64,000 bases of DNA from Parcubacteria group bacterium (GCA_016188775.1 JACPHC010000006.1:618-64617), one strand, 5' to 3'. Positions 1,214-61,430 are shown, counted from the stretch's first letter. Notes: generated by a model not told the origin, from the sequence alone. Translations and numbers: made by a program.

Positions 1214-1426
1214 TTTGTCATTGCGAGAAGCGAAGCGACGAAGCAATCTTATTTGTCATTGCGAGAAGCGAATCGACGAAGCAATCTTATTTGTCATTGC
1301 GAGAAACTGAAAGGAGCGTGGCAACCTCATTTGTCGTTGCGAGAAACTGAAAGGAGCGTGGCAATCTCATAATTTGAACTAAATATTTATTAGATTGCTT
1401 CGGCGATTTCATCGCCTCACAATGAC
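1214..1426. repeat. Composite copy of the family-1 miniature palindromic element. Four tandem left halves (TTTGTCATTGCGAG...GCAATC) are followed by one right half (GATTGC...CACAATGAC)
   Basis: Read directly from the sequence. The termini are GTCATTGCGAG / CTCGCAATGAC, with a subterminal GCAATC/GATTGC pair. The predicted ORF 1108..1350 lies wholly inside the repeat and is judged spurious. Confidence 0.7.
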
Positions 1427-1493
1427 GATTGGTTCGCAATATTTCAAAAATCCATTTTCTTCGCTTTTTAAAAACAAAATTATTTTACAAACA

Positions 1494-1526
1494 AAAACCT
1501 GCTATTCGCGCAGGTTTTTTAAAATT
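1494..1526. terminator. Hairpin (AAACCTGC..GCAGGTTT) with a T tract, overlapping the stop of the minus-strand gene. It is probably a bidirectional terminator
   Basis: aaaacctgctattcgcgcaggtttttt. Confidence 0.4.
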
Positions 1527-2836
1527 AAATCTTTGAGAATTAAGCCTTGAAGACTATCGTAAACAATATCGCCGATTTCCGGCCCGACGGAAACTCTCAT
1601 TTGATAAGGATATTTTTTTGCTTGCCAATCGTTTTTGAAAATTATATAACCCAACTCGTCATTGACCAACCCTAAAATAAATCGGCGTTTAACTTTATGG
1701 ATAGCGAGAACTTGGCGCAATGCTTGGCCGATATTCGGCATGGCTTCGCCGGGAATTGTCAAAAATACGGCTTGGCCAATTCTGATAGAATTTACCTCGG
1801 TCTCAATTTTTCCTTCATTGTCCCTCCTTTCTTCAATCACGCCCAAAAAAATCATCATTTTAAATTTCCAGTCTTCCATCGGAACTTTAATTAATTTCTG
1901 CCGAACGACAATTTCCGGATTTTTTTCTTCTTCTTTATTCTTTAAAGCGGAAAAAATTTTTTCCGATAAAAGCTGGCCGTTAATTTCAACCGTGCCCCAA
2001 TCGTTACGATTGCCTTCGTGATGATTGACTATAGCCCCGACTCCACCTTGGGCGCCGTTGATAAAAACAGGCGTTCCGCCTAATTCTTTTTCCAATCTCT
2101 CATAAACCGGCCAAAGAATATCCGCGCTGACGTAATTGCCATAAATCAAATTGGGATGCATGGCGTAATTAAATAATAAAGCGATATTTTTGCCGCCGGC
2201 ATCGTCGAGCGACATAATTTCCAGAGGAGCGTTGTTTAATATTTCGGACCCGAAAGAGATTTTAGCTTTTTTAAAATTATCCCAGGAAGAACGAATACAA
2301 GATGCGGCCCGCTTTTTCACGCTCGCGATGTAATTATTATCTTTGCCGGAGATAAAAAATATCGGCCCCCAAAGACCCATTGTGTCCGGGGCCGCATGAG
2401 TATGCGTAAAAGCTAAAAACAAATGAGAAGGGGGGATAATGTCAGCAACGCTTTTTTTAATTTCATTGATATCACCTCGGCCCATACCGATTAAATCAAA
2501 GGAGGCGAAAACTAATCCGTTTTGGCCGTCGTGTATTGATAAACACCGAACCCAAATATCGTCATGAATGTCTTCGGCCACCCGAAAATTGATTCCAAAT
2601 CCGTAGCCGGCCAAATAAAATCTGTTCGCCTTGATGTCCGGCGTAATTTTTTCTTTAGCCGCGCCGGCCAAAACTTCGTTGTTGCCAAGCCGGCCGGATA
2701 AAATCGGCGGATCGTAATGATTGGGATTGAATTCCGGCCTGTTGAAAAAATCATTTTTAATGGCCATTTCTTTGGCGCAGCCGAAACAAAATAAAATCAT
2801 GAAAAAACCGATTATTCGTTTCACTTTATCCTCCAA
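1502..2836 (-). CDS. Secreted or lipoprotein hydrolase with an N-terminal domain resembling neutral/alkaline ceramidase
   Basis: 444 aa. It has a signal peptide with a lipobox-like LFCFGC. The motifs GYGFGINFRVAEDIHDDIWVRCL and FTHTHAAPD recall the conserved GYA...GxHxRL..RAF and HTHSGP motifs of neutral ceramidase. This match is recalled, not searched. Confidence 0.4.
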   Translation of the reverse strand: MEDKVKRIIGFFMILFCFGCAKEMAIKNDFFNRPEFNPNHYDPPILSGRLGNNEVLAGAAKEKITPDIKANRFYLAGYGFGINFRVAEDIHDDIWVRCLSIHDGQNGLVFASFDLIGMGRGDINEIKKSVADIIPPSHLFLAFTHTHAAPDTMGLWGPIFFISGKDNNYIASVKKRAASCIRSSWDNFKKAKISFGSEILNNAPLEIMSLDDAGGKNIALLFNYAMHPNLIYGNYVSADILWPVYERLEKELGGTPVFINGAQGGVGAIVNHHEGNRNDWGTVEINGQLLSEKIFSALKNKEEEKNPEIVVRQKLIKVPMEDWKFKMMIFLGVIEERRDNEGKIETEVNSIRIGQAVFLTIPGEAMPNIGQALRQVLAIHKVKRRFILGLVNDELGYIIFKNDWQAKKYPYQMRVSVGPEIGDIVYDSLQGLILKDLILKNLRE

Positions 2837-3030
2837 AACAAGTTTTTAAAGTGCTTCTAATTTGAAGATAATACTTAAAAATAAAATTGGCAAATAAAAA
2901 TAAATATTATACATTGCATTTTAATTTATCACGATAATTGGCCATGGCTTAATAGCTCAATAGCTTAATAGCTTAATAAAACTTAAGCGCTTGATGTAAT
3001 TACTAAAAATTAAATAAAGAATAATAAAAA

Positions 3031-3109
3031 ATCAAAAAATCTTTATCAAAAAATCTTTATCAAAAAATCTTTCTACATACTTTCAAACGATCGTTTGAAA
3101 GTATGTAGA
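3031..3109. repeat. Three tandem 14-bp repeats (ATCAAAAAATCTTT), immediately followed by a perfect 38-bp palindrome (TCTACATACTTTCAAACGATCGTTTGAAAGTATGTAGA)
   Basis: Read directly from the sequence. The feature lies in the intergenic region upstream of the minus-strand ceramidase-like gene. A further 8-bp AATAGCTY x3 tandem lies at 2951-2978. Confidence 0.8.
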
Positions 3110-3139
3110 ATATAACATAATTAAAAATAATTAAAACAT

Positions 3140-3172
3140 AAAAGACCTGAAAAATTTTTCAGGTCTTTTAAT
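3140..3172. terminator. Rho-independent terminator hairpin (AGACCTGAAAAA/TTTTTCAGGTCT) flanked by A/T tracts
   Basis: aaaagacctgaaaaatttttcaggtctttt. It lies just downstream of the minus-strand gene ending at 3195. Confidence 0.6.
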
Positions 3173-3194
3173 AAAATTTTACTGCGTAAAATTT

Positions 3195-3587
3195 TTATCG
3201 TTTTCTTTCCGCTTCTCTCGCGGCATCATACATATTTTTTTGACTCAGCCACAACTGACAGCTTGGCCAGCCTGGCTTTTCCCAACAATGCGAAGGCATT
3301 GGGCCGGGGTGAGGCACTGAAAATTCCAAATAGTACCGTTTCTCAACCCGGGCGCAATCCGTATGGGGATAGGGATTGCGATTATAATCGCATTTATACT
3401 CCCAAGTTCGCCACATTGGCCACCAGCCGGCAATCGCGCGCTGTCTGGCATTATAATCGTCCTTTTGAACCTCAACCGGTATCGGTTGATAATAGCCAAT
3501 ACAGCCGCTGAGAAAAATCGCCATTAGCAATACGGTAAAAATATTCAATCCGAATCCTATCGCGTCGTCTATTTTCTGATAATTCAT
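3195..3587 (-). CDS. Small Cys/Trp-rich putative lipoprotein of unknown function
   Basis: 130 aa. It has an N-terminal hydrophobic segment ending in LSGC (lipobox-like) and a W/C/P/Y-rich mature part. Confidence 0.5.
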   Translation of the reverse strand: MNYQKIDDAIGFGLNIFTVLLMAIFLSGCIGYYQPIPVEVQKDDYNARQRAIAGWWPMWRTWEYKCDYNRNPYPHTDCARVEKRYYLEFSVPHPGPMPSHCWEKPGWPSCQLWLSQKNMYDAAREAERKR

Positions 3588-3821
3588 TTCTCCTCCTTTT
3601 AAAAGTGAAAAAACAATTTTTCCAATAATCCAATGAATTTAAAATTTTTAAACACCTAATATATAATATATCAAAAAATATAATATTGAGTAATGAAGAG
3701 TAAAAACACAATTTATTTTAAAATAACTGATAATACAATAACTCTAAAATAGGTTTTTGTCAAATTTTTTTCATTATTACGTCTCCATGCAGGCATAACG
3801 CAATAAAGGATATTTTTTTGT

Positions 3822-3862
3822 CTTACTAAACTTAATTGGACGGCCGTTTAATTAGTTTAGTA
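3822..3862. promoter_or_regulatory. Copy 1 of a ~40-bp palindromic motif centred on GACGGCCGTC (CTTACTAAACTTAATTGGACGGCCGTTTAATTAGTTTAGTA)
   Basis: Seen directly. Two further copies lie at 30109-30149 and 48696-48735. The arms ACTAAAC/GTTTAGT are inverted repeats around a perfect GACGGCCGTC palindrome. Confidence 0.6.
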
Positions 3863-4011
3863 TGAATATCAATTGCTTAAGTTTAGAAAAGTTTATAAAT
3901 TAAAGAATTTACACCTTTAGCGACGATCGTAAATAAAAGTGTAAATTTCAAAAAATAAACGCATATAGAGCAATCAATGGGGAGTTGAACTCTCATAAAT
4001 TACTCTAAAAA

Positions 4012-4020
4012 TTATCCACA
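4012..4020. promoter_or_regulatory. Perfect DnaA-box consensus TTATCCACA upstream of the first gene of the T4SS-like cluster
   Basis: Exact 9-mer match. It is followed by TGTATAAT (-10-like) at 4047-4054. A single box has uncertain significance. Confidence 0.3.
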
Positions 4021-4111
4021 ATTTGTTTCTTGTTTAATTAAAATATTGTATAATACTGACACAACCGTGAATAATAATTTTTTCAACTCAAAAAAGAGGG
4101 TTATTTTGGGA

Positions 4112-5824
4112 ATGGTTTTTGTTATTTTATTTTTGGCGCTGATTGTTCCTTTAAAAACCGAGGCTTCTATATGGAATCCACTTGACAATCTTTTAGACGC
4201 TATCATAACTGCTATTGTTCAAATATCTAATTTTCTAGTTGGATGGATTCTCTATATTATTCTTACCCCATTAGGCATATTCGCCGGCTGGCTTCTTGAT
4301 CCGACACTGATCCCGATTATTAACAGCGATGTTGTGACAACCGGTTATAAAATCACTTTGGATTTAGCCAATATGTTTTTTGTTTTGATTATTATAGTTA
4401 TCGCGTTCGCGACAATTTTTCGAATTAAAAGTTATGGCGCGGAGAGTCTTTTACCGAACTTAATTATCACCGCGGTCCTAATTAATTTCAGTAAAGTGAT
4501 TGCCGGAGTGGTCATTGATTTTTCCAATGTTTTAACCTCTTTTTTCCTCGAGAGAATATCAAGCAATTCCAGCGGCGTCTCGGCATCAATCGCCAACGCT
4601 CTTAAAGCGGCGGCTCTTTTTCCCACAAATCTTCCATCGGGCACCGGATCAAGTTTAGCGGGCTGGTTGAATGTTCTGGGCGGAATAATAGTCACTTGGA
4701 TTTTCGCTTTAGTAACCATCGCCGTCTTTGCTTCTTTTGTAGTTTTATTATTTTCCAGGGTTTTTGCCTTATGGATGCTTCTGATCGGAGCGCCTTTGGC
4801 TTGGCTTTTTCGAATCTTGCCTAAAACCCAAAAATATTGGAATGATTGGTGGGAAAAATTAATCAGCTGGTCTTTTGTCGCTCCTGTTTTTTCTTTTTTT
4901 CTTTATTTAGCCCTTAAAACCAATCAAACCATGAAAGATGCGCTTGGAAATCCACTTACGGACAACACTGGAGCGGGCGCTGAATTATCAAAAACTAATC
5001 CTATGCTTGAGCCGACTTTTTTGCTCAATTACATAGTTTTAATAGGCCTTCTATTGTATGGCGTTAAAACTTCCAAAAAAATGGCCGATTATATGCCTCA
5101 AGCCTTGTCAGCCGGCTGGCAAAGCGCCAAGGGCGGTTTTAAAAAAGCCGCTGGCATAAAAAGCCTTCAAGAACGAGCTAAAGAATTTGGGGGGAAAGTT
5201 GGCGAAAAAACCTCGCAAATCGCTTCTCGTTTACCCGGGGCCGGTCTTGTTTTACCCAAAGCCGGGGAAATAAGAACTGCCAGAAAAATAGAAAAAGGAG
5301 CCAAAAAAACGGGAGAACAGGCCAAACAAGAAATGGATGTTATTAAAAAACGAGCTCGAGGAGCAGTGTTAACCAAGGAAGAACAAAAAATAGCCGATAA
5401 TCCTCAATATTTAGCAAAAACGGAACAAACAGCGTTAGAAAAACAAGCTCGAGGAGCAGTGATGACTCCGGAAGAACAAAAAACAGCTGCAAGGCTTGAT
5501 GCTGCTTACGCTACCAGCGATCTTGATTTTGGCCGTAATGTTATTGAACAAAAAGCAAAAAATATCGCCCAACGCAGCACTATTGGTCAAAGATTAAAAA
5601 TAAGAGCCAAAAGCGTAATACGCCCGTCGGGAATCCTTACACCCACTCCCACCGCTGATGAGGCCGCGCTTCTTTTAGCCACTTCGCATAAAACTTATAA
5701 AAAAGAGTTTGAAAAACGCAAAAAAATAAATCAATGGCCTTATTCTGAAGGACAAAAAACTGCAAAAGAAAAAGCTTTGGAATCACTGGAAGAGTATTTT
5801 AAACCGCCGCCAACTTCGCCATAA
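4112..5824 (+). CDS. Polytopic membrane protein resembling VirB6/TrbL/PrgH-like T4SS channel components, with a Lys-rich hydrophilic C-terminal domain
   Basis: It has about 6 or more predicted TM helices after a signal-like N-terminus, then a roughly 200-aa charged tail. The start at ATG 4112 is preferred because it is preceded by AAGAGGG (Shine-Dalgarno). The ORF-track start 4046 is the alternative. The family call rests on topology and context only. Confidence 0.4.
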   Translation: MVFVILFLALIVPLKTEASIWNPLDNLLDAIITAIVQISNFLVGWILYIILTPLGIFAGWLLDPTLIPIINSDVVTTGYKITLDLANMFFVLIIIVIAFATIFRIKSYGAESLLPNLIITAVLINFSKVIAGVVIDFSNVLTSFFLERISSNSSGVSASIANALKAAALFPTNLPSGTGSSLAGWLNVLGGIIVTWIFALVTIAVFASFVVLLFSRVFALWMLLIGAPLAWLFRILPKTQKYWNDWWEKLISWSFVAPVFSFFLYLALKTNQTMKDALGNPLTDNTGAGAELSKTNPMLEPTFLLNYIVLIGLLLYGVKTSKKMADYMPQALSAGWQSAKGGFKKAAGIKSLQERAKEFGGKVGEKTSQIASRLPGAGLVLPKAGEIRTARKIEKGAKKTGEQAKQEMDVIKKRARGAVLTKEEQKIADNPQYLAKTEQTALEKQARGAVMTPEEQKTAARLDAAYATSDLDFGRNVIEQKAKNIAQRSTIGQRLKIRAKSVIRPSGILTPTPTADEAALLLATSHKTYKKEFEKRKKINQWPYSEGQKTAKEKALESLEEYFKPPPTSP

Positions 5825-5852
5825 CAAAAATTATTAAAACTAACTACTAAAT

Positions 5853-6248
5853 ATGCCAATACCAAACACAATTTACGGCTTAAGTCATTTTTCCAGCGAC
5901 CAAATTAAAGCTTTGGCCCATGCCTTGGAGGCCGAGGAATTAAATCCGTACACTATTTACAAACAAAGACCGGACGCTCTGCCGGAACGGGAACTGGAAG
6001 ATGTTATAAAAAAAATGAGTCCGGAAGAAGCCTCGGACATTGTGCCGGACAGTTTTAGCGGAGAGAAAGGGATAGAAATAGTTTCTTCCCTGTCTCTGCG
6101 CCAACTTGAAAAAATAGGCTCGGATGGCGACCCGATTCTAAAAGAAACGATTAAAATCAGTCTGGAAAAAGCTATTGAAAAAAAACCGGGCGATTTCAAT
6201 CTTCAAAAAATTTTAAATTATATTAATAACAGCCCAGCCTGGCAATAA
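5853..6248 (+). CDS. Hypothetical acidic soluble protein
   Basis: 131-aa ORF with no recognisable motif. Confidence 0.45.
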   Translation: MPIPNTIYGLSHFSSDQIKALAHALEAEELNPYTIYKQRPDALPERELEDVIKKMSPEEASDIVPDSFSGEKGIEIVSSLSLRQLEKIGSDGDPILKETIKISLEKAIEKKPGDFNLQKILNYINNSPAWQ

Positions 6249-6278
6249 AACTATGCCTATCCAAAAACTCAACCAACT

Positions 6279-6369
6279 GTCATTGCGAGGAGCGGAGCGA
6301 CGAAACAATCTAATAAATATTAGTTCAAATTATGGGATTGCCACGCTCCTTTCAGTCTCTCGCGATGAC
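6279..6369. repeat. Copy B of the family-1 miniature palindromic element
   Basis: CTGTCATTGCGAGGAGCGGAGCGACGAAACAATC ... GATTGCCACGCTCCTTTCAGTCTCTCGCGATGAC. Its right-half core is the reverse complement of the core of the third and fourth tandem units of copy A. Confidence 0.75.
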
Positions 6370-6400
6370 AAAAAAGTTTTCGAACGGACTAAATAAAACT

Positions 6401-7090
6401 ATGGAAGAATTAAAAAAATCCAATCCTTTAATAGCCGAGGAAGAAGAAATGGTTCCCAAACCATCCAAGGATCAAATTGTCTTATGGGAAGAATTGGAAA
6501 AAAGAGTGCCGGAGGAAAATGTCATTGTCTGGACCGAAGGATTCTACCAACTGCCCCAAAATATCCGCGATTATTTAGCTCGCGAAGATACGAGTTTAAA
6601 AATAAAAAATCTCGCCATAAATTTTAATTTCAATCAAGCCGAAACCCAATATTTAAACCGCCTGATTAACGGCTTTTTTATCGGCGCTATTAATCCCTCC
6701 AATTTCTTTGATTATCTCAAAAAGGGCTTTAAAAATTTAAAGGACGAGGAAGTCAAAAAATTAGCGGAAAATATCCGCGAGGCCATATTTCTGCCTCAAA
6801 GAGATTTTCTCCGTCAAAAACATAATTTGGAAGAAACTAAAACTTCTCAACCGGCTCCGGCGCCAAAACAATTGCCAATTGATCAAGATATTTATCGGGA
6901 ACCGGCCGACGAAGAGCCAAAAATCCCGCCTCAAGCCAACGGCGTGGTTTTTCTCTCCGATGACATAAAAATCAAACTGGATGATCCTCAACGTCTGAAA
7001 AAATTAGGCAAATTTTTAATTGATCTGGGTGAAAAAACTATTGAAAAAAAGAGGAAAAAAGACGCGGAAAACGAGATTTTTAAAATTTAA
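6401..7090 (+). CDS. Hypothetical Lys/Glu-rich soluble protein
   Basis: The ORF-track start at 6332 lies inside repeat copy B and is probably not used. In-frame ATGs at 6365 and 6401 are more plausible. Confidence 0.45.
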   Translation: MEELKKSNPLIAEEEEMVPKPSKDQIVLWEELEKRVPEENVIVWTEGFYQLPQNIRDYLAREDTSLKIKNLAINFNFNQAETQYLNRLINGFFIGAINPSNFFDYLKKGFKNLKDEEVKKLAENIREAIFLPQRDFLRQKHNLEETKTSQPAPAPKQLPIDQDIYREPADEEPKIPPQANGVVFLSDDIKIKLDDPQRLKKLGKFLIDLGEKTIEKKRKKDAENEIFKI

Positions 7091-7102
7091 TTTTTTATAA
7101 AT

Positions 7103-7573
7103 ATGGCGCATTCTCCAATAGACAAGGCGGCATTAGCGATTGCCCAGCGGATAGCTAATAAATTAAATAATTTAATTGAACAAGGCCATGATACAATAGC
7201 TTTTTTATTAGCTATTCTTTTAGCTTTTTTGAAAGACGGAATGGATGTGATTCTAGATTTGATGCTGATAGGAGAAATTCCAATTATTGGTCAAATGCCA
7301 GGAATTCTAATTTCCGCGATTTTAATGTATTTTTTATGGGGGAAAGGATGGTTTAATACGACAAAAGTAAAAATAATATTATGGGGACTTGGGGTTTTTG
7401 CTGATAATCTGCCTTTTTTGATAAATGATTTACCATTAACTGTCTTGACAGTTTTGATGGCTTGGCATGTTGTGCGTAAAAGAGCCAAAAAAGCCAAAAA
7501 AGATTTAGACAAATTAAGTAAAAAAACAATAAAAGAATTAGAACAAATTGATAAAGAATTAGAAACAGCTTAA
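7103..7573 (+). CDS. Small integral membrane protein (3-4 TM helices) with a Lys-rich C-terminus
   Basis: 156 aa, hydrophobic core. No family assignment is possible by eye. Confidence 0.45.
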   Translation: MAHSPIDKAALAIAQRIANKLNNLIEQGHDTIAFLLAILLAFLKDGMDVILDLMLIGEIPIIGQMPGILISAILMYFLWGKGWFNTTKVKIILWGLGVFADNLPFLINDLPLTVLTVLMAWHVVRKRAKKAKKDLDKLSKKTIKELEQIDKELETA

Positions 7574-7623
7574 TAAATATAGAGCGATTAATAAAAAAAT
7601 GATATAATAAAAAATACTAATCA

Positions 7624-8511
7624 ATGAGATTAGCTTTAAATCCAAAAATAAATTCAATGATTTTACCGGCGGTTAGCCTGCTGACCGTTTTAGGTATTGG
7701 TTTAATCGGTTTTGGTGTTTTTAAATCCGGCAATAAATTGGAAATAGAATTTAAAAACGGCCGGCTGACTCCTCAAAGCACCCAAAATATCAGCGAAATT
7801 TTTTCTCAAAATCTCAAAAAGGCGATTTCCCAAAACGTCGCTCCGGAAAAAATTTTTGAAAACACAAAGTTGAATTTCAAAAGCGACGAAACTTTAACCG
7901 CGCTTTTATCTCAAAATTTTCTTTCCGAAATAACCAAAAAAAATCCGGCCCAAATTCAAGATCCGTCTTTTATAGAAGCTCTTAAAGATTCATCTGATCC
8001 GGCAAGTTTTCTGGGAATCAGCGATTTAAATCCGGCTTTTGCCGATAAATCAAAAGAAATTATGAATTCATTGATTTACAACCCGCCGAGCTTTACTACC
8101 AAAAATAACGCCAGTTTGAAAGATAAAGTAAATTATTTCTCCGCTCTTAAAAATTTAATCTTGCCGTTTCAAAAAACAAACCCTTTAATTATCCAGGCAG
8201 CGCTGCAAACAAAAAATTACGCCGAACTGGATAGACGGATTGAAAAATTAAAAACCTCTCTCTTGAGCTTTGAAAAATTAGAAGCGCCGAAAGAATACAT
8301 CGATCTTCATAAAAAAATAATCAGTTTTAACGGCTATCAAATCAACGTTTTTGAAGAAATAAAAAAAGCCGGGGAAAATAACGATCCTTTAAAGCAATAT
8401 CTGATTATAATTTCTTACGATGAAATTTTAAATAATAATTATAAAACAACTATTTTAGAAACAATAAACGAAGCTAAAAAAATGATTAGCGAGATTAAGA
8501 AACTAAAATGA
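7624..8511 (+). CDS. Bitopic membrane protein, with an N-terminal TM helix and a ~250-aa extracytoplasmic domain. The topology is VirB8-like
   Basis: 295 aa with one TM helix near the N-terminus. The VirB8 comparison rests on topology and context only. Confidence 0.4.
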   Translation: MRLALNPKINSMILPAVSLLTVLGIGLIGFGVFKSGNKLEIEFKNGRLTPQSTQNISEIFSQNLKKAISQNVAPEKIFENTKLNFKSDETLTALLSQNFLSEITKKNPAQIQDPSFIEALKDSSDPASFLGISDLNPAFADKSKEIMNSLIYNPPSFTTKNNASLKDKVNYFSALKNLILPFQKTNPLIIQAALQTKNYAELDRRIEKLKTSLLSFEKLEAPKEYIDLHKKIISFNGYQINVFEEIKKAGENNDPLKQYLIIISYDEILNNNYKTTILETINEAKKMISEIKKLK

Positions 8512-10535
8512 AAAAACTCCTCACAATTATATTAATTTTTTCTCTCATCGTTTCTTCTTTTATTTTCAGCTTTCAAAAAACTTACGCTGGAGAACCTGTG
8601 ACCGATCCCCTCACTGAATTTATGACAGGTCTCACGTCTTTTGTAACAACTGTCTCGTCAATATATGACCAGATAGCTAACGAAGATAGCATTTTTGCCA
8701 CAGCGGCTAAATACGCATTATTGGTAGCTGGAACGCTTATTATGAACCAGATAACTAATGATATGATAAATTGGATTAACAACGGATTTGACGGCAAGCC
8801 GGGTTTTGTTCAAAATCCTGAAGGATTAATTAAAAAAGTCGGAGACCAAGCGGCCGGTTCTATTTTAACGACTCTGGCCGGCAATCAACTCTGCGAGCCG
8901 TTCAAATTAAATATTCAGATACCGTTGCAGGAAGTCTCGTCTTTTAACGATGAAGTTCAATGCACCCTCACGAAAATAGTTGAAAATATTGATTCTTTTT
9001 ATGACGATTTTTCAACCGGCGGCTGGCTCGCTTGGGTTCATTTAACCAAACCGCAAAATAACGCCATTAGCTCTTATTTAATGATCCAAGATGAATCGGC
9101 GCGCCAAGAGAGCAAATCCACAAAAAATACTTTTGACGAAATAAACCGCAATCAAGGATATTATTCCGTCAAAGAATGCAGCGCGAGCTTTGATTCTATA
9201 GATGTCCCCACCGGAGAAAAAAACGGAGTCAGAACGTTAACCGGTAAAACCCAAGAGAATATCTGGGATCAAGTCGCTAAAGCTGTCACTGATAGCGGCG
9301 GTGAAACGGTTTATCGCATAAAAGGTGAAATTCAATGTTCAACTAAAACTCCGGCGCAAGTTGTTTCAGGCACCTTAAATGAAACTATTACCGGAGGAAA
9401 TAAAATAATGCAACAATCAATATCCGATTTAACCGCGTCTTTAGGACTGCAAGGCAGTTTTTTTCAACCATTTATTACAGCGATGTTGAACGCCTTAATT
9501 AATAAAGGCGTTATGGAAGGATTGGCCGCGGCCCAAACAGCTTTAACCAACACGGAATCTTCGCCAATTAACTCTGTTCCCTCCGACGAAGCGGTTGATG
9601 ACTCTACTTTAGTAGACACAACCAGATCCGATATAGCCCAAGTTGAAAGCATTAAAAGATCCCTTAATCCGGGTTTAAAACAACAACTTTCATTAGTCTC
9701 TGACGCTTTAATTCCCGCAATTGATGTGGCCGGCCAAATTCAACAAACCGAAATTAATATATTAGAAACTGAAGGAAAAATGGCCGCTATAAACGAGGCT
9801 TTAGTTAAAGGCGGTCGAGCCGCGTCCTGCGTTTTTCCAACTGATACTACTGACAGAACAATTACCACTATTATAACTTCTACCAATGCCACTTATCCCA
9901 ATGCCACTGCTCTTGATGATAAAATGGCAAGAACTATAGACGTTAATGTTACTGACAGTAAATATGGAAAAGGAACGCCAGCTACAACTTTGCGTATTAT
10001 CACCGCCACTGCTCAAACAACCGATCTCTTCGGCAATACTTTTGTTAATGTAGGCGTCAATTCAGTGACAGCAATTTCGTCTCCTCAATATCAAACTCCT
10101 ATTGACGCTGCGCTTAGCAATTATACCACTGAAAAAACCAGCGCTGATAACGCTTTAAATAATATTGATCCGACAATGACTAGTCTTCAAATTTATTTAG
10201 ACAACGCTGATTCATTTATTGAAATTGGCAACGCCAATGTTCAAGCCGGGACCACAATTGCCCAATCTGACAAAGATACGCTCCAGCAAAATAAAGATAA
10301 TGCCCTTAATAGTCTAGCGCCGATTATAAGCCCAGAAACTGCCAATGATTTTTCCAGTTATAATTCAAAAATTTCCGATTTAAACGTGGAGACGTTTGAC
10401 CGCGCCGACAATATTAATCGCGAAGTCGGCTCATCCAGTTCAACCGATCCCCTAACTCTTTACGGACAATTAAACGACGCCAGCGGCGCTCTCGCTTCAA
10501 TTCAATCTTCTTACGCCGCTTGCGCCGCCTTTTAA
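8508..10535 (+). CDS. Large secreted Thr/Ser/Asn-rich protein, a candidate surface, adhesin or pilus-associated protein
   Basis: 675 aa with a cleavable-type signal peptide (MKKLLTIILIFSLIVSSFIFSFQKTYA). Its start overlaps the upstream stop by 4 nt, suggesting translational coupling. Confidence 0.5.
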   Translation: MKKLLTIILIFSLIVSSFIFSFQKTYAGEPVTDPLTEFMTGLTSFVTTVSSIYDQIANEDSIFATAAKYALLVAGTLIMNQITNDMINWINNGFDGKPGFVQNPEGLIKKVGDQAAGSILTTLAGNQLCEPFKLNIQIPLQEVSSFNDEVQCTLTKIVENIDSFYDDFSTGGWLAWVHLTKPQNNAISSYLMIQDESARQESKSTKNTFDEINRNQGYYSVKECSASFDSIDVPTGEKNGVRTLTGKTQENIWDQVAKAVTDSGGETVYRIKGEIQCSTKTPAQVVSGTLNETITGGNKIMQQSISDLTASLGLQGSFFQPFITAMLNALINKGVMEGLAAAQTALTNTESSPINSVPSDEAVDDSTLVDTTRSDIAQVESIKRSLNPGLKQQLSLVSDALIPAIDVAGQIQQTEINILETEGKMAAINEALVKGGRAASCVFPTDTTDRTITTIITSTNATYPNATALDDKMARTIDVNVTDSKYGKGTPATTLRIITATAQTTDLFGNTFVNVGVNSVTAISSPQYQTPIDAALSNYTTEKTSADNALNNIDPTMTSLQIYLDNADSFIEIGNANVQAGTTIAQSDKDTLQQNKDNALNSLAPIISPETANDFSSYNSKISDLNVETFDRADNINREVGSSSSTDPLTLYGQLNDASGALASIQSSYAACAAF

Positions 10536-10664
10536 ATTAGAAAATTAATCCCGTTAAAAATCGCGGATACGTAATTAAAATATGATATATATAAAAAATA
10601 AAATTTATAAATAATAAAATAGAGCCTCGGATGCTTTTTGCGCCCGCATTCTATTTTTAACGGG

Positions 10665-12271: not shown

Positions 12272-12277
12272 TAGACT

Positions 12278-12676: not shown

Positions 12677-12798
12677 ATTTTGACAATTTGTTATTTAAAT
12701 TAAAATTAAAGTATGGCACCCGCCTTCGCTAAAAGCTTCGGCGGATGCTCATAATTGTAGCGAAATTTATTTCGCTATAATTATAAATTTCGACAATT

Positions 12799-13449: not shown

Positions 13450-13485
13450 TGAATGGACATATAATAAAAATATTCTACAATCGAA

Positions 13486-48677: not shown

Positions 48678-48695
48678 AAAACTTTTCCAGCCACT

Positions 48696-50670: not shown

Positions 50671-50834
50671 AAAATAAGAATTAAAAGCGAAGGAAATGGA
50701 TTTTTAAAATCGCAGGCGTGGTCGGCTAAATTTGCGAAGCAAATTTAGGGCTACGGCGATTTTAAAAAATCCGTTTCCGAAGAGTTATAATTTTGCGTTG
50801 CGTTTTATTTTTTAAGATTATATGATTAAATGTA

Positions 50835-51908: not shown

Positions 51909-52474
51909 TTTCTACTATTGAAGGACAACTCAAAGAAAAGAATGGCAAGTCCGTTATTTTGGAAACGGGCGGCATTGGTTACGAAATTTTTGTTTCAAGT
52001 CGGACGCTCAAAGAATTAAACGAATTTAACCATTCGATCAAGCTTTGGACATTTTTAAGCATTCGGGAGGATCGCATGGAACTTTATGGATTTTTAAACA
52101 AGGAAGAACTGGATTTTTTTCATCTTTTGGATTCAGTGGCTGGCGTCGGGCCAAAAGGAGCTCTGGCTATTTTGGGGTTATCCGACTTGACCCGTTTGAA
52201 AGCCGCTGTTTTTCAGGAAGACAGCAAATTTTTGACCAAAGTCGCCGGCATCGGGAAAAAAACGGCGGAACGGATTATTCTGGAACTCAAAAATAAAATT
52301 AAAGATATTGAAAATCTGCCGGCCCTTGAATCCGATCACGAAATTCTTGACGCTTTGGTTGAGTTGGGATATAGCGCCAGAGAAGCCAAGGCCGCGATTG
52401 AAAAAATCCCCGACGAGGCCCAGGGGCTTGAACCAAGATTAAAATCCGCCTTAAAATCGCTGTCGAAAAAATGA
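51905..52474 (+). CDS. ruvA: Holliday junction DNA helicase RuvA
   Basis: MISTIEGQLKEK...GGIGYEIFVS and the HhH motifs. Confidence 0.9.
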   Translation: MISTIEGQLKEKNGKSVILETGGIGYEIFVSSRTLKELNEFNHSIKLWTFLSIREDRMELYGFLNKEELDFFHLLDSVAGVGPKGALAILGLSDLTRLKAAVFQEDSKFLTKVAGIGKKTAERIILELKNKIKDIENLPALESDHEILDALVELGYSAREAKAAIEKIPDEAQGLEPRLKSALKSLSKK

Positions 52475-53088
52475 TACCAAACATCCTTATTAATTTATCC
52501 CGTTTAGGTTTTTTGATTTTTTTGATTTTTCAGGCGCTAAACTTAAAAGGTATTTTGAATTTCCAGCCGACTTTCAGTTGGGAAGGATTAATCACTACTT
52601 CGCTTTTTATCTGGTTTAGCGTTGAGTTCATCCATTATTATTTAAAAAATCGGAATTTGCGGTCTTTAAGCTCGTTTGTTTTTGTTTTAGGTTTTATTCC
52701 CACTTCCGTTGATTTTTTCGGCGATATCCTGCATTTTTACGATCGTTTTTATTGGTATGATCGGGCCGCTCATTTTTCCGCCGCTTCCAGTTTGGCCATC
52801 CTGGCTTTGATAATTTTATCAAATCTTAGAAAAAAAAATTATTTCAATTGGAGTTTGGTCATGCTTCTTTTTATAGTTTTTTCCGTCACCCTCATCGGCG
52901 GCGTTTTTTATGAAATTGAAGAATATTTGGAAGATCGATTGTACTGGAGCCGTCAGCTTCGTTTGGGAGACGGTCCGGACACGGTCGAAGATATTATGTT
53001 TGACGCTTTCGGCGGCTTGTTCGTGACTTGGACGGCGTTTATTTATCAGAAAGTGAAAAATGCTCGAAAAAATTCTTCGGCTTCTTAA
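52471..53088 (+). CDS. Polytopic membrane protein, unknown
   Basis: 205 aa with 5 TM helices. Confidence 0.4.
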   Translation: MIPNILINLSRLGFLIFLIFQALNLKGILNFQPTFSWEGLITTSLFIWFSVEFIHYYLKNRNLRSLSSFVFVLGFIPTSVDFFGDILHFYDRFYWYDRAAHFSAASSLAILALIILSNLRKKNYFNWSLVMLLFIVFSVTLIGGVFYEIEEYLEDRLYWSRQLRLGDGPDTVEDIMFDAFGGLFVTWTAFIYQKVKNARKNSSAS

Positions 53089-54316
53089 AACTTATATTAT
53101 TCCGAAATCTATTTTTAATCTGGCTCGGCCGAGCTATCATTATTTTCTGGCGGGTTTGTCCGCTTTTTTTTACGGCTTCCCGTCAAAAAAATTAAAAGTT
53201 ATCGGCGTCACCGGCACTAAAGGAAAATCTTCCACGGTTTATCTTTTAAGCCGGATTTTTGACGCGGCTCGTCTCAAAAATGCCGTTTTATCTTCAATTG
53301 AAATAAAAATCAACGGTGAAATTCAGCCCAATTTTCAAAAAATGACTATGCCGGGCCGGTTTTTTATTCAGAAATTTTTAGCCGAAGCGGTTTCTTCTGG
53401 ATGCGAGTTTGCGATTTTAGAAACGACTTCGGAAGGCATTAAACAGTTTCGGCATAAATTTATTGATTTTGAAGCCGCGGTTTTCACGAATTTGAGTCCG
53501 GAGCATATTGAATCGCACGGCTCTTTTGAAAAATACCGCCAGGCGAAATTGGAACTTTTTCAAGCCGTTAAAAAAATTCATATTATTAACGCGGACGATC
53601 CGTCAGCGAAATATTTTTTGGAAATCCCGGCGGCTAAAAAAATTCAATACGGAAAAAATAATAATTCTTTCGGCTCTTTGGATTTAAAATTGGAAGGAGA
53701 GTTTAATTATTACAACGCTTTGGCCGCCGGTGAAACCGCGCTTGCTTTGGATGTTGATAAAGAAATCATTAAAAAAGCCCTCGCAAGCGTGGAAACTATT
53801 TCCGGCAGATTTGAATATATTAACGCCGGGCAAGATTTTAAAGTAGTTGTTGATTATGCTCATACGCCGGATTCTTTGGAAAAAGTTTATCAGACGATTA
53901 AGGTAAAAGATAAAGACGCGAGGTTGATCTGCGTTTTGGGCGCGGCTGGCGGCGGCCGAGATAAATGGAAAAGACCGGTGATGGGAGAAATTGCCGCAAA
54001 ATATTGCGATAAGATTATTTTGACCAATGAAGACCCGTATGACGAAAATCCAAGCCGGATTTTATCGGAGATAAAATCCGGAATTTCCAATTCCCCCGCC
54101 AGTCGGACAGGCAGGCAATTTCTATTTTCCAATTTATTTGAAATTTTAGATCGGAAAAAAGCGATTCAAAAAGCTTTGGGATTGGCGAAAAAAGACGATT
54201 TTGTTATTATTATTGGTAAAGGTTCGGAAAAATGGATGATGCTGGAAAATGGCAAAAAAATTCCTTGGGATGAACGGGAGACGGTTAAAGAAATTTTAAA
54301 AGGTCGAAAAATATGA
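53060..54316 (+). CDS. Mur ligase, MurE-like UDP-MurNAc-tripeptide synthetase
   Basis: P-loop VIGVTGTKGKSST and DYAHTPDSLEKVY. The protein is short (418 aa) and carries ENPS where mDAP-type MurE has DNPR. Confidence 0.6.
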   Translation: MLEKILRLLKTYIIPKSIFNLARPSYHYFLAGLSAFFYGFPSKKLKVIGVTGTKGKSSTVYLLSRIFDAARLKNAVLSSIEIKINGEIQPNFQKMTMPGRFFIQKFLAEAVSSGCEFAILETTSEGIKQFRHKFIDFEAAVFTNLSPEHIESHGSFEKYRQAKLELFQAVKKIHIINADDPSAKYFLEIPAAKKIQYGKNNNSFGSLDLKLEGEFNYYNALAAGETALALDVDKEIIKKALASVETISGRFEYINAGQDFKVVVDYAHTPDSLEKVYQTIKVKDKDARLICVLGAAGGGRDKWKRPVMGEIAAKYCDKIILTNEDPYDENPSRILSEIKSGISNSPASRTGRQFLFSNLFEILDRKKAIQKALGLAKKDDFVIIIGKGSEKWMMLENGKKIPWDERETVKEILKGRKI

Positions 54317-54357
54317 AAATTAAACAGCTCAAAATATAATACCTTGAATTGCAAAAT

Positions 54358-54458
54358 GTCATCGCGAGCGAGCCCTAAGGCGAGCGCGGCGATCTCGCGT
54401 TTATATACAGAAGCGTAGGATTGCCGCGTCGCTCGCTTTGTTCGCTCCTCGCAATGAC
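54358..54458. repeat. Copy E of the family-1 miniature palindromic element (GC-rich core variant)
   Basis: GTCATCGCGAGCGAGCCCTAAGGCGAGCGCGGCGATC ... GATTGCCGCGTCGCTCGCTTTGTTCGCTCCTCGCAATGAC. Confidence 0.75.
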
Positions 54459-54493
54459 ATCTTTTTGAGAATTTCGTAATTCATAGATAATAT

Positions 54494-54706
54494 ATGGATA
54501 ACTATCTTCACAATTTAATTCATCAGCTTTCCGAGGACTTGGACAGTCTTTGGAGATACGATACGTACAAAGACGATTCTAAAAATTTTTGCGACCATTG
54601 CCACGGACTTTGGGATAAAATGAGAAAAATGGACGAAGACAAAGCCCAGCTTTTGATTGACGAACTTTTAATGCACGTTAAGGAAGGCAAGGTTAAAATT
54701 AAATAA
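54494..54706 (+). CDS. Small hypothetical protein
   Basis: 70 aa, Cys/His-containing. Confidence 0.3.
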   Translation: MDNYLHNLIHQLSEDLDSLWRYDTYKDDSKNFCDHCHGLWDKMRKMDEDKAQLLIDELLMHVKEGKVKIK

Positions 54707-54717
54707 ATCCCGTTAAA

Positions 54718-55569
54718 GTGAAATTAAAGTTTTTAAAAATTCCTTTATTTTTAGAGGAAGCCGCTTTTTTTGGTCTGGCTCAAGTTTTGGGAATTTTATC
54801 CGCCTGGAAAACCTCTATTTTTTTAAATGAATCGGTTCCTCAAATTAAAACGGAAGAATCTTTTTCCGGACTCCAATTTATTATTTATTTTTTGATCGGC
54901 ACGCTAGTTATTTTCATTTTTTTGCGTTTTTTTAAATCAAACATTCCTTTTAAATTTTTCTTTTATCTGACGGTTTTTAGCGGAATGAATTTAATTTTTT
55001 CTTCTTTTTTTAGCGCCAATCTAGCTCTGATTTTATCCTTTGCTTTGGTTGTTTTTTTGTTTATCCATCCCCGAGTCTGGCTTCACAATTTGGTTTTTAC
55101 TTTGGGAGTCGGCGGTCTGGGCGGGCTGTTGGGTATTAGCTTAACGCCTTGGACCGCTGTTTTGATTTTAATCGTTTTATCTATTTACGATTGGATCGCG
55201 GTTTATAAAACCAAGCATATGGTTAAACTCGCCAAGGAGATGATTCAACGGGGAGCGATTTTCGCCCTGATTCTGCCGGAAAAAATTCGGGATTTATTTA
55301 TACTTCCCAATTATGAAGTTAAGCCCGGAGAAGGGAGGGCTTTTTTTCTGGGCGGCGGAGACGTGGCTTTGCCTCTGCTTCTTTCCGCCTCGGTTTTAAC
55401 TTTTTATGGATTAAAAATCAGCGCTCTGACCGCGGTTTTTTCTTTATTCGGTCTTTTGGCCACTCATTTATTGTTTATTCTTCAGGAGAGGAAAAAACCT
55501 ATGCCGGCTTTGCCGCCAATCGCCCTTTTTACGATTGCGGGATTTTTGATTGGCAGATTGATTTTCTAA
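54718..55569 (+). CDS. Presenilin/signal-peptide-peptidase-family intramembrane aspartyl protease (A22-like)
   Basis: Polytopic, with the YD motif (SIYDWIAVY), the GxGD motif (FLGGGDVALP) and a C-terminal PAL motif (MPALPPIA). Confidence 0.6.
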   Translation: MKLKFLKIPLFLEEAAFFGLAQVLGILSAWKTSIFLNESVPQIKTEESFSGLQFIIYFLIGTLVIFIFLRFFKSNIPFKFFFYLTVFSGMNLIFSSFFSANLALILSFALVVFLFIHPRVWLHNLVFTLGVGGLGGLLGISLTPWTAVLILIVLSIYDWIAVYKTKHMVKLAKEMIQRGAIFALILPEKIRDLFILPNYEVKPGEGRAFFLGGGDVALPLLLSASVLTFYGLKISALTAVFSLFGLLATHLLFILQERKKPMPALPPIALFTIAGFLIGRLIF

Positions 55570-55712
55570 TTTTTTACTACAATGCGATTACGATCGTGAG
55601 CTCATTGTAGTGAGAAAATAGAAAAGAAAGAAAAAAACGAAAAGATTGATTTTCCAAAAAAGTTTTGATAAAGTCATTTGAATAAAAAATCGATCTTTAA
55701 AAAGGAGGAAAA

Positions 55713-55871
55713 ATGCCTGTTTGCTGTCAAGAATTAGAAGAGAAAAAAAGTTTTTTAAAAATGGAATTTGTGAATGTTTGTCCTTTTTGTGGAACTGTTT
55801 TAAGCCCGGAAAGGTTTAAAACAATAATAAAAGAAATTGAAAAGGAGAAAAAAGATGCAATGCAAGGATAA
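55713..55871 (+). CDS. Small zinc-ribbon protein, 52 aa
   Basis: Strong SD AAAGGAGG upstream, with CC..C..CPFC. It is absent from the ORF track because it is shorter than 60 aa. Confidence 0.45.
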   Translation: MPVCCQELEEKKSFLKMEFVNVCPFCGTVLSPERFKTIIKEIEKEKKDAMQG

Positions 55872-56073
55872 GAAATGCGGAGGTGAAGTAGATTTTAAAT
55901 TGATGAATGGAATAATGGTGAGACTTGGGCCTAGCGAATTGGATCAAGGTTTTCCTTGCAAAAAGTGCGGCCAATTATACAAAAATCACGGCGGATTGGT
56001 TTCTAGGGAAATCAAGGGGAAAATTAAATTTCTGTATTTAAATAAAAAAACTCTTGAAATAGAGCTTAGATGA
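55855..56073 (+). CDS. Small zinc-ribbon protein, 72 aa
   Basis: SD AAGGAG at 55842-55847. The motifs are C..C....C..C. It overlaps the upstream small ORF by 17 nt. Confidence 0.45.
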   Translation: MQCKDKKCGGEVDFKLMNGIMVRLGPSELDQGFPCKKCGQLYKNHGGLVSREIKGKIKFLYLNKKTLEIELR

Positions 56074-56138: not shown

Positions 56139-56213
56139 GCCCTCGTAGCTCAACGGATAGAGCGTAGGCCTCCGGAGCCTAAGACAGGGGTTCAATTCCT
56201 CTCGAGGGCACCA
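56139..56213 (+). tRNA. tRNA-Arg (anticodon CCG)
   Basis: Folded by hand. The acceptor stem is GCCCTCG/CGAGGGC, the D arm GCTC-AACGGATA-GAGC, the anticodon arm TAGGC-CTCCGGA-GCCTA, and the T arm AGGGG-TTCAATT-CCTCT. The discriminator is A and the CCA end is encoded. Confidence 0.85.
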
Positions 56214-59684: not shown

Positions 59685-59755
59685 TAAAGCAGGGATATAA
59701 GAAGGAATTCTTCCAAATCAAAATTGTTGGGGATGAATAAAGCAATGTATTAAAG

Positions 59756-59946
59756 AGAATTTTCTCCACGAGCCGCAAGTGAAGCCCCGCTGCCTACTCG
59801 TTCAGAGCGGCGGCTGGCGGCGGACTTCCTTAGTTCAGGAATTTTTGATAAACCCCCATGCCTAAAATTTAGGTGTGGGGTTAAAGCAAGTTCGAGCGCG
59901 GTCGTAAATATACACCAAAATAAAAAACCCGGGCGCGGGTTTTTTA
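59756..59946. repeat. Right copy of the ~190-bp inverted repeat
   Basis: See the left copy. An extended -10 element TGGTATAAT at 59957-59965 follows immediately. Confidence 0.9.
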
Positions 59947-59972
59947 AAATTATTTGTGGTATAATTTCTTTG

Positions 59973-61325
59973 ATGTCTCATCTTTCTTTTTTCGGCGGAG
60001 TTGAAGAAGTGACCGGTTCAAATTATCTTTTGGAACATAAAGATAAAAAGATTTTGATTGATTGCGGAATGTTTCAGGGTTCGCGTTTTGCCGAAGAAAA
60101 AAATTTCGAACCTTTTCCTTATAATCCTAAAAAAATCGATTTTTTAGCCATTACTCATTCGCACATTGATCATATCGGCCGCATTCCAAAACTTTATCGG
60201 GAAGGTTTTCGAGGCAAAATTTTTTCCACCCGGCCGATCAAAGATTTCGCGGAACTTTTTTTATCCGACAGTCTTAAACAGTTGGAAGATATAGCGAGAG
60301 ATTTTAAAAAAGAACCCTTTTTTGACGAAAAAGATTTAATCGGCGCGATGAATCTTTTTGAAACCTACGACTACGGAGAAAAAATCGATCTGGGAGAAAA
60401 TTTTTATTTGATTTTTCGCGATGCCGGCCATATTTTGGGCTCCAGTATTATTGAAGTTTTTATAAACGGACAAAAATTGGCCTTTACCGGCGATTTAGGC
60501 AATCCGCCAACGCCGATTTTGAAACCAACCGAACGAATTTCTAACGCCGATTGGCTGATTATGGAGGCGACTTACGGCAATCGTTTGCACGAGGATAAAT
60601 TAAAAAGAAAGACGTTGTTGGAACGGGCCATTGAAGACACGGTGACCCAGGGCGGAGTTTTAATGATTCCGGCTTTTGCCATGGAAAGAACGCAGGAGAT
60701 ACTTTACGAATTGGACGAGCTGGTGAAAAATCATCGAATTCCCCGGATTCCCATTTTTATTGACAGTCCCTTGGCTATTAAAGCCACGAATATTTATAAA
60801 AAATACACCGATTATTATAATCAGGAGGCGATTAGCCTGATTCGTTCCGGCGAAGATTTTTTCCGTTTTTCCGGACTTAAATTCACCGAAACAAAAGAAG
60901 AATCAAAAAAAATCAACGATGTTCCGGCGCCAAAGATTATTATTGCCGGTTCCGGCATGTCCAACGGCGGCCGGATTTTGCATCATGAGCGCCGATACCT
61001 GGCCGATCCCAAAAGCCTTCTTTTGATTATCGGCTATCAAGCTTTTGGTTCGCTTGGCCGGAGATTGCTTGACGGAGAGAAAGAGGTCCGGCTGTTTGGC
61101 GAAACTATTCCGGTTCGGGCTCGGGTTCGGGCGATTGGCGGCTATTCGGCTCACGCGGACCAAGAAGGGCTTTTGGAATTCGTTTCCAATATGCGCGAAA
61201 CTTTAAAAAAAGTTTTTTTGGTGCACGGTGAATTCGGAGCCGCGGAAACTCTGGCTTTAAAAATCAAAGACGAAATGGCAATTGAGGCGATTATACCAAA
61301 ATTTGGAGAAAAATTTGAAATTTGA
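59973..61325 (+). CDS. MBL-fold beta-CASP family ribonuclease (RNase J / CPSF-like)
   Basis: HxHxDH motif in ITHSHIDHIGRIP, plus DAGH, EATYGN and a C-terminal His. The ATG at 59973 lies only 7 nt after the -10 hexamer, which suggests a leaderless transcript. Confidence 0.6.
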   Translation: MSHLSFFGGVEEVTGSNYLLEHKDKKILIDCGMFQGSRFAEEKNFEPFPYNPKKIDFLAITHSHIDHIGRIPKLYREGFRGKIFSTRPIKDFAELFLSDSLKQLEDIARDFKKEPFFDEKDLIGAMNLFETYDYGEKIDLGENFYLIFRDAGHILGSSIIEVFINGQKLAFTGDLGNPPTPILKPTERISNADWLIMEATYGNRLHEDKLKRKTLLERAIEDTVTQGGVLMIPAFAMERTQEILYELDELVKNHRIPRIPIFIDSPLAIKATNIYKKYTDYYNQEAISLIRSGEDFFRFSGLKFTETKEESKKINDVPAPKIIIAGSGMSNGGRILHHERRYLADPKSLLLIIGYQAFGSLGRRLLDGEKEVRLFGETIPVRARVRAIGGYSAHADQEGLLEFVSNMRETLKKVFLVHGEFGAAETLALKIKDEMAIEAIIPKFGEKFEI

Positions 61326-61343
61326 TACAATATTTATACAACT

Positions 61344-61430
61344 GTCATTGCGAGTCCCGCTTTAGCGGGGCGTGGCAATCTCTTCTTTTGACTAATTTTA
61401 GAGATTGCTTCGCTTTCAGCTCGCAATGAC
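61344..61430. repeat. Copy F of the family-1 miniature palindromic element
   Basis: GTCATTGCGAGTCCCGCTTTAGCGGGGCGTGGCAATC ... GATTGCTTCGCTTTCAGCTCGCAATGAC. Confidence 0.8.

Follow-up and report, generated by a model that had tools for sequence, protein, structure and literature searches.

A family of short palindromic repeats occupies six intergenic loci in a 64,000-nucleotide (nt) stretch of the metagenome-assembled genome of a Parcubacteria group bacterium (GCA_016188775.1, JACPHC010000006.1:618-64617; hereafter "the window"), a stretch also present in two independent Logan assemblies. An earlier note on this DNA, prepared from the sequence alone, described the loci as copies of a miniature palindromic element of about 90 base pairs (bp). 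The repeating unit is half of that element, a hairpin of 31–43 nt (about 36 nt), and it is well supported that the six loci comprise 15 copies of a repetitive extragenic palindromic (REP) sequence with the architecture of the CGTC-tagged REP superfamily.

The terminal sequence GTCATTGCGAG, at up to one mismatch on both strands, has 14 matches in the window against 0.60 expected (14 or more in 0 of 100 shuffles), all confined to the six loci named in the earlier note; the subterminal motif CGWRGCAATCY has 17 matches against 6.8 expected. A half-unit covariance model based on 39 distinct units, run over the whole window with filters off, recovers exactly 15 units (E from 1e-12 to 4.5e-3), every one within the six loci, and no singleton units outside them. 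The enrichment and this census bear out the six dispersed copies where they had been placed, and the inverted termini, subterminal GCAATC/GATTGC pair and variable cores are likewise confirmed, in elements of 82–101 bp. The sole other covariance-model match with E < 1 in the window lies inside uvrB at 49658–49687 on the minus strand (15.9 bits, E 0.047; CGTCATTGACGAATCGCATTTATCAATCCC); it codes for the helicase motif V-I-D-E-S-H and is taken to be a chance match. Di Nocera, De Gregorio and Rocco (2013; BMC Genomics 14:522, PMC3733652) describe genuine REPs inserted into uvr genes in other species.

The first locus consists of four head-to-tail units and one inverted unit. The tandem units lie on the plus strand at 1216–1250 (TGTC tag, core AAGCGAAGCGACGAA; 55.2 bits, E 1.4e-12; also found by Tandem Repeats Finder), 1254–1288 (50.5 bits, E 2.6e-11), 1292–1328 (core AAACTGAAAGGAGCGTG, exact terminus; 19.7 bits, E 4.5e-3) and 1332–1368 (22.4 bits), the last being paired, in inverted orientation, with the closing unit of the array at 1391–1427 on the minus strand (CGTC tag, core hairpin GGCGATGAAATCGCC; 32.2 bits; DNA fold −6.8 kcal/mol, z −2.1). 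Tandem Repeats Finder reports 4.1 copies of period 38 nt at 1211–1370, in agreement with the composite of four tandem left halves recognized earlier. The other five loci are inverted pairs with tags outward, the left unit on the plus strand and the right on the minus strand. Dimer 2 combines units at 6278–6312 (53.9 bits) and 6334–6370 (23.0 bits), the latter holding a spurious ATG at 6332, as seen from the sequence and its translation. In dimer 3, the left unit at 13485–13521 (AGTC tag, core hairpin GCGATTAAATCGC; 33.8 bits; DNA fold −8.9 kcal/mol, z −3.25) faces a degenerate right unit at 13531–13568 (26.2 bits), in which GTAATC stands at the subterminal position and the terminus, GTCATTATGAG at 13557–13567, is picked up at two mismatches. 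Dimer 4 has units at 37884–37920 (33.1 bits; its core also occurs in another Patescibacteria locus, L017) and 37939–37975 (core hairpin GGCGTCGAAGACGCC; 34.8 bits; DNA fold −9.4 kcal/mol, z −2.9); dimer 5 joins a GC-rich variant at 54357–54396 (GTCATCGCGAG...GCGATC; 26.6 bits) to a unit at 54417–54459 (45.0 bits); and dimer 6 joins units at 61343–61382 (core hairpin TCCCGCTTTAGCGGG; 30.0 bits; DNA fold −9.0 kcal/mol, z −3.1) and 61401–61431 (short core CTGAAAGCGAA; 34.9 bits).

Self-comparison of the window shows that single halves, sometimes with spacer, recur at other loci in both orientations: 1392–1426 is 94% identical to 13486–13520 reversed, and 1330–1402, spacer included, is 92% identical to 6301–6372 reversed. 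Similarity between loci stops at the termini and never extends past them. The core types first listed, and the sharing of half-cores in either orientation, are correct; "modular recombination between copies", which had been proposed to account for the sharing, is unsupported, and independent REP units explain it more simply.

Read on its own strand, the unit runs YGTC, ATTGC, GA, G (apical hairpin) C, G-N-R, GCAAT, C-Y/C-N: an unpaired tag (YGTC), a 5-bp basal stem (ATTGC/GCAAT) and an asymmetric purine internal loop (GA opposite G-N-R), above which a G-C pair closes an apical hairpin variable in sequence and length, with a 2–3-nt tail at the end. The basal stem forms within each half, ATTGC of the terminus pairing with GCAAT of the subterminal motif. 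The window tags are TGTC in 13 of the 15 units, with CGTC and AGTC once each. Under DNA folding parameters many halves fold alone as a hairpin with a second apical stem-loop (z down to −3.25), and whole dimers folded as single strands reach −31 to −62 kcal/mol (z −3.9 to −9.6).

The same anatomy is found well beyond the window. Among 627 distinct exact termini in all the DNA fetched, 545 have an exact GCAATC 13–60 nt downstream, against about 1% expected by chance; the four nucleotides before this GCAATC are CGAA, CGCG or CGTG in 94% of the 545, of which 63% have C and 33% have T as the tag base. Of 258 dimers, 96% have a pyrimidine at position −1. The tail is CCA at 48% and CTC at 26% of loci; in the window it is CTC, CTT, CTA or CCC, and CCA in none. 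The GCAATC, the four nucleotides before it, the tag base and the tail formed no part of the terminus search pattern. Pairs 5–32, 6–31 and 7–30 are A-U or U-A in 37–39 of the 39 distinct units. In the 35-nt length class, four apical pairs have changed on both sides, with a covariation score reached in 0 of 500 shuffles, and the apical part keeps its pairing across length classes, as in GCGATTAAATCGC, GCCTGCTTTGCAGGC, GACCGAAGGTC and GA-GC-GAA-GC-GA, the last with tandem G.A pairs in place of the C-G pairs of other units. Predicted apical loops are mainly GNA triloops (GAA 31, GCA 17, GTA 8, GGA 8); in DNA, GNA mini-hairpins of the d(GCGAAGC) type show unusually high stability. The core between the conserved arms is mostly 7–27 nt long, rare longer values probably reflecting mis-paired termini, and the distance from tag to tail is 20–45 nt.

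The pattern GTCATTGCGAG-N55-85-CTCGCAATGAC occurs at 120 or more loci in 185,579 species-representative genomes, where an estimated two or so would arise by chance. By record title the hosts include Bradyrhizobium and many other Alphaproteobacteria (Rickettsiales and Micavibrio among them), Gammaproteobacteria, Bacteroidota, Ignavibacteriota, Planctomycetota, Desulfobacterota, Chloroflexota, Zixibacteria, Margulisbacteria and Patescibacteria, assignments among which binning errors in metagenome-assembled genomes are possible. Tails and tags vary by lineage, Patescibacteria, Chloroflexota and Desulfobacterota tending to CTC with TGTC and Alphaproteobacteria to CCA with CGTC, which argues against simple contamination. 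The same termini are present at 120 or more loci of the IMG/VR viral collection; many of these matches (L132–L247) are structural clusters of phages or of the gene transfer agent (GTA) type, high in GC and probably alphaproteobacterial, their proteins having been judged by eye.

Pairing is predominantly between unlike units. In the 258 dimers from all sources, 19 (7%) are homodimers and the other 93% have an unlike partner; 203 of 242 dimers join cores of unlike length, 9 with 15 being the commonest combination. Flanking direct repeats, looked for in the 258 dimers as target-site duplications, stand at the shuffled expectation for k ≥ 3 (at k = 4, none observed against 0.9 expected) and exceed it by a small margin at k = 2 (13 observed, 4.2 expected); the check for such duplications that the earlier note had called for is in this sense negative. 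Partial structures also occur: in Sphingobacterium sp. UBA1575 (L063, 2729–2885) the tag and 5′ arm alone (CGTCATTGCGA/G) are repeated four times, 15–18 nt apart, before a normal dimer whose right terminus, CCTCGCAATGACG, is duplicated at a distance of 33 nt. Such partial copies of the termini may have been left behind as a footprint by the copying mechanism.

The closest known relatives are the CGTC-tagged REPs, defined together with GTAG-tagged REPs by Di Nocera et al. (2013). As described in the text of that paper, members of the CGTC superfamily have an unpaired CGTC tag (often TGTC, or CCTC), a stem starting with A-T and a CCA tail; they are mostly inverted dimers, often heterodimers, with head-to-tail arrays rare, lie just past the 3′ ends of open reading frames (ORFs), and have no linked transposase. 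The window units share the tag, the A-T stem start, inverted heterodimers, the position after ORFs and the lack of a linked transposase. CGTC-3 comes particularly close: its peptides decode to CGTC-ATTGCCGGG-CTTGA-CCCGGCAAT-CCA, and CGTCATTGC...GCAATCCA (ATTGC...GCAAT) and the tag are common to both, with a 3-nt tail as a less certain likeness. CGTC-1, which includes the Neisseria dRS3 and Rickettsia RPE-6 repeats according to the same text, decodes from its peptides to CGTC-ATTCCCGC-GAAA-GCGGGAAT-CCA, and resembles the present units in its CGTCATT... start, ...AATCCA end, GAAA or GNA-type loop, and occurrence in clusters and dimers. The differences are nonetheless clear in the stem: CGTC-1 to CGTC-4 have continuous 8–9-bp stems with 4–5-nt loops per the text, that of CGTC-1 being a perfect 8 bp of ATTCCCGC with GCGGGAAT, whereas here a 5-bp stem is interrupted by a 2x3 purine internal loop and topped by a variable apical hairpin. 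The window tail is CTC or CTT, as against the published CCA consensus, and the peptides VIAS/VIAR, SLRG, HCE and LAMT encoded here do not figure among the intragenic REPs that the paper lists. Its authors state that bulged units, the kind seen here, could have escaped their search, and the five phyla in which their text places CGTC repeats do not include Patescibacteria. On that text the interrupted-stem subfamily stands apart; it may already have been listed, for example as "Bradyrhizobium CGTC-1 with loops of different length". Distinctive here are the interrupted hairpin and a host range reaching Patescibacteria, the kind itself, CGTC-type REPs, being known.

Rfam, Pfam and NCBIfam contain no family for the element. 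A search of Rfam 15 gave no match overlapping any element, either at the gathering threshold or at E ≤ 10. Nine stop-free element translations, searched against NCBIfam and Pfam, gave no family match at E ≤ 10 except one chance-level Pfam match; NCBIfam presumably includes the models of Rickettsia palindromic element (RPE) peptide domains. A literature search with the literal terminus and subterminal sequences matched unrelated primers alone.

Comparison with GTAG REPs, their doublets (bacterial interspersed mosaic elements, BIMEs, and REP doublets forming hairpins, REPINs) and the associated RAYT transposases shows a more distant likeness. Both have a 5′ unpaired tetranucleotide and an imperfect hairpin, inverted doublets of two unit types (in BIMEs, the Y and Z REPs), a position after genes, no target-site duplication and a proposed single-stranded DNA mechanism. 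The tag here is YGTC rather than GTAG, and GTAG REP systems have a single-copy RAYT gene (Y1 HUH) flanked by REPs, whereas neither the window nor about 2 Mb of flanking DNA contains a RAYT-like gene. Most REPIN populations are specific to one lineage; in contrast, the terminus here recurs across many phyla.

How stable are the copies in evolution? In a relative whose TraC-like protein is 81% identical, the 219 nt that hold dimer 3 in the window are matched by a gap of 3 nt (TAA-TAA-ATG), and a 61% relative has 20 nt separating its beta-CASP gene from its SLOG gene, as against 153 nt, dimer 6 included, in the window; three syntenic 21-kb Parcubacteria loci contain no units. In an 82% relative (L123, 2400–2418, SRR22387820), the contig stops precisely at TGTCATTG, 87 nt past the beta-CASP stop, where the window offset is 17 nt; the repeat evidently broke this assembly, as it does short-read assemblies of these genomes. 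Dimers in orthologous alphaproteobacterial GTA-like operons lie at many different intergenic sites: the positions, varying by genome, are past the capsid gene, past the major tail gene or past g14, in the g13–g14 interval, and ahead of g15. The empty orthologous sites make mobility or turnover plausible. The mobile character suspected in the earlier note is upheld to this extent, the copies not being fixed at relatives' orthologous sites; a miniature inverted-repeat transposable element (MITE) bounded by terminal inverted repeats does not fit, target-site duplications being absent. In another Parcubacteria genome (L249, around 11400–11480 of GCA_016186395.1), the beta-CASP/SLOG spacer is 340 nt long and carries a different palindrome, TCTAAGGACTAAAG ... 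CTTTAGTCCTTAGA, without a CGTC-type unit, which may belong to a separate repeat family found at sites of this type.

All six window loci lie 17–56 nt past a stop codon; the flanking genes are co-directional at five, convergent at one and divergent at none. The earlier statement that all copies are intergenic holds once two side-claims are corrected. The supposed interruption of VirB4 is refuted: the 216-aa ORF upstream of dimer 3 is a separate, TraC-like gene (PF26593), which is stand-alone and about 210–225 aa long in 120 of the 120 matches listed, of 2147 at E ≤ 1e-5, and residues 211–568 (the ATPase domain) of the 591-aa VirB4 align with the solved VirB4 C-terminal domain 4AG5. The start codon said to be overlapped by copy 2 is an artefact of calling the longest ORF (6332–7090), whose first 13 residues are translated repeat and which has an in-frame ATG at 6401, past the element. 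That the elements generate spurious small ORFs is correct. Intrinsic terminator function, also suggested, is unsupported: no consensus terminator coincides with any of the five loci scanned (1–15000 and 37000–56000), and most copies are followed by A-runs, not T-runs. Terminator-like hairpins unrelated to the REP family do occur in the window, with 18-bp and 14-bp stems followed by T-runs at 3071–3110 and 3139–3170 (minus strand), and with an 11-bp stem, bidirectional, at 44099–44127.

An XerC/D-like integrase gene (Phage_integrase family) at 303–1193 ends 22 nt before the tandem array, and about 3 kb downstream of it lies a Patescibacteria-type type IV secretion cluster (4046–16580) with genes for T4SS pilin-like (11384), PrgI/VirB3-like (12278), TraC-like (12799–13449) and VirB4 (13669–15444) proteins; in the related loci compared, too, the TraC-like and VirB4 proteins are encoded by a pair of separate genes. 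For the 131-aa ORF upstream of dimer 2, a homology search returned the query alone. The region at 16570–21200 is the replication-origin region, with an R3H (Jag-like) gene, yidC and rnpA on the minus strand and dnaA (18503–19891) and dnaN (20100–21200) on the plus strand; cumulative GC skew has its minimum at about 18–20 kb. A presenilin-type signal-peptide peptidase gene (PF06550) at 54718–55569 keeps the same neighbours in a related Parcubacteria locus, and tRNA-Arg(CCG) at 56139–56213 is the sole RNA gene detected in the window.

The search for a cognate transposase, another of the checks put forward at the outset, found none within the window or about 2 Mb of flanking DNA. A RAYT/TIRYT profile hidden Markov model, made from a 12-sequence alignment in the PMC3733652 supplement, gave nothing at E ≤ 1 in the window, 120 genome loci and 120 viral loci (about 2 Mb in total), and Pfam annotation of the window ORFs revealed no transposase of any kind. 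All-against-all ORF clustering in the 120 genome loci returned generic families alone as candidate partner genes (ABC transporter, response regulator, SDR, acyl-CoA dehydrogenase, LysR); the recurrent families in the viral loci are GTA/phage structural genes, reflecting contig selection. ORFs bounded by two units show no recurrent family, and a homologue of the XerC/D-like integrase lies near the element in 0 of 120 genome loci and 2 of 120 viral loci.

The explanation favoured here, and thought probable as a whole, is that these are CGTC-type REPs, hairpins spread in trans and retained as 3′ stem-loops. On the model of GTAG REPs and their RAYT (Y1 HUH) transposases, the units would be non-autonomous, each folding as a hairpin on single-stranded DNA; an enzyme encoded elsewhere would recognize the tag and the foot of the hairpin, and the unit would be copied into new intergenic sites without target-site duplication. 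Lying 17–56 nt past stop codons, copies would probably be co-transcribed with the upstream gene and form a very stable predicted 3′ stem-loop. REPs past genes in E. coli shield mRNA from 3′ exonucleases and bind gyrase, IHF and Pol I. No enzyme is known to mobilize CGTC REPs, as has been the case since 2013. The population in this genome may still be active or may be a decaying relic.

One alternative, judged unlikely, is that the units are fossils: REPs spread by a dedicated enzyme since lost, now subject to decay, to local duplication by slippage or recombination, and to deletion. Loss of a dedicated enzyme is one of the two hypotheses set out in the text of Di Nocera et al. (2013). All window units differ, the closest non-adjacent pair being 94% identical; one right arm, in dimer 3, is visibly degenerate; no linked transposase was found in the DNA searched; and slippage could have given the tandem array. 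Yet the family is found in the window species and a relative at about 81%, and is absent from the syntenic regions of three other Parcubacteria, while the different offset after the same beta-CASP gene in a relative implies gain or movement within this lineage. The many different sites occupied in orthologous GTA operons, and the 120 or more loci with intact termini in each of two collections, also speak against simple fossilization.

Another possibility, rather less likely, is that the elements are not mobile at all and are cis-regulatory structures maintained by host selection, acting as 3′-untranslated-region stabilizers, operon attenuators or sites for chromosomal proteins. The constant position shortly past a stop codon between co-directional or convergent genes would suit such a role, as would the very stable folding, a structure kept through covariation, and the established ability of E. 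coli REPs to stabilize the mRNA preceding them and to serve as binding sites for gyrase, IHF and Pol I. However, the orthologous sites of relatives are empty (3- and 20-nt gaps), the neighbouring genes are functionally unrelated, no Rfam family matches at E ≤ 10, and the elements are not followed by a U-tract or, at the loci scanned, associated with a terminator consensus. Selection in cis leaves the spread of the units unexplained by itself; it is compatible with CGTC-type REPs spread in trans as a secondary effect.

A classical MITE of about 90 bp, with 11-bp terminal inverted repeats and moved by DDE cut-and-paste with target-site duplications, is very improbable. Bacterial MITEs such as the Correia/NEMIS elements of Neisseria are likewise small and intergenic, with inverted termini and strong RNA hairpins if transcribed, and the perfect or near-perfect 11–12-bp inverted termini, dispersed intergenic positions and presence/absence differences between relatives seen here are of the kind expected. 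MITEs, however, have target-site duplications and originate from insertion sequences with matching ends; here flanking direct repeats are not enriched at k ≥ 3, no transposase was found in the window or its flanks, and the half-unit, with its own internal stem, is an autonomous repeat module that occurs four times in tandem and, in 93% of dimers, pairs with an unlike unit. Tyrosine-recombinase sites, Xer-like or integron attC-like, are the least credible of the alternatives: the array at 1216–1427 adjoins a Phage_integrase-family gene, and attC sites are likewise imperfect palindromes recognized as folded single strands, but an integrase homologue is near the element in almost none of the other loci (0 of 120 and 2 of 120), the other five window loci are far from recombinase genes, there is no cassette organization, and the units are unrelated in sequence to R′ and R″, the core sites of attC.

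Several points weigh against the favoured explanation itself. The mechanism of transposition is argued solely from analogy; the analysis covered 64 kb of the genome, and an unlinked RAYT-like gene may lie elsewhere in it. The relatives with empty sites are only 61–81% identical at the protein level and give no clean insertion boundaries, and at site 3 the extra 219 nt exceed the 84-nt dimer (a suspected duplication of the virB4 5′ end flanking that dimer was not significant against shuffles). There are no identical dimers within the window and related units are 88–94% alike, so that there is no sign of a recent burst. The scans of the two collections demanded the exact 11-nt terminus, and the invariance across phyla is thus partly a matter of ascertainment.

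A bolder extension of the trans-spread model, offered as speculation and on balance improbable, is that units of the ATTGCGAG type represent a single-strand hairpin found across all bacteria. No dedicated linked transposase would propagate it on this view; its spread would fall to a conserved, unlinked enzyme of single-stranded DNA processing, retained even by the minimal genomes of the candidate phyla radiation. Tag and hairpin foot are common to units from Bradyrhizobium to Bacteroidota, Chloroflexota, Planctomycetota and Patescibacteria. If this were true, a Parcubacteria genome of about 1 Mb with about one unit per 4 kb would narrow the CGTC REP mobilizer to a few candidate genes.

Few bacterial repeats are as widespread as CGTC-tagged REPs, the group for which no mobilizing enzyme is known. 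The subfamily described here, with its interrupted stem, freely co-varying apical hairpin and a tag and foot constant across phyla, is abundant in a reduced Parcubacteria genome; it extends the host range of CGTC REPs and singles out tag, basal stem and purine internal loop as the probable recognition features. On the practical side, the units create spurious ORFs, false N-terminal extensions and broken metagenome assemblies. For the family as a whole, the reduced Parcubacteria genome offers a small system in which to seek the missing enzyme.

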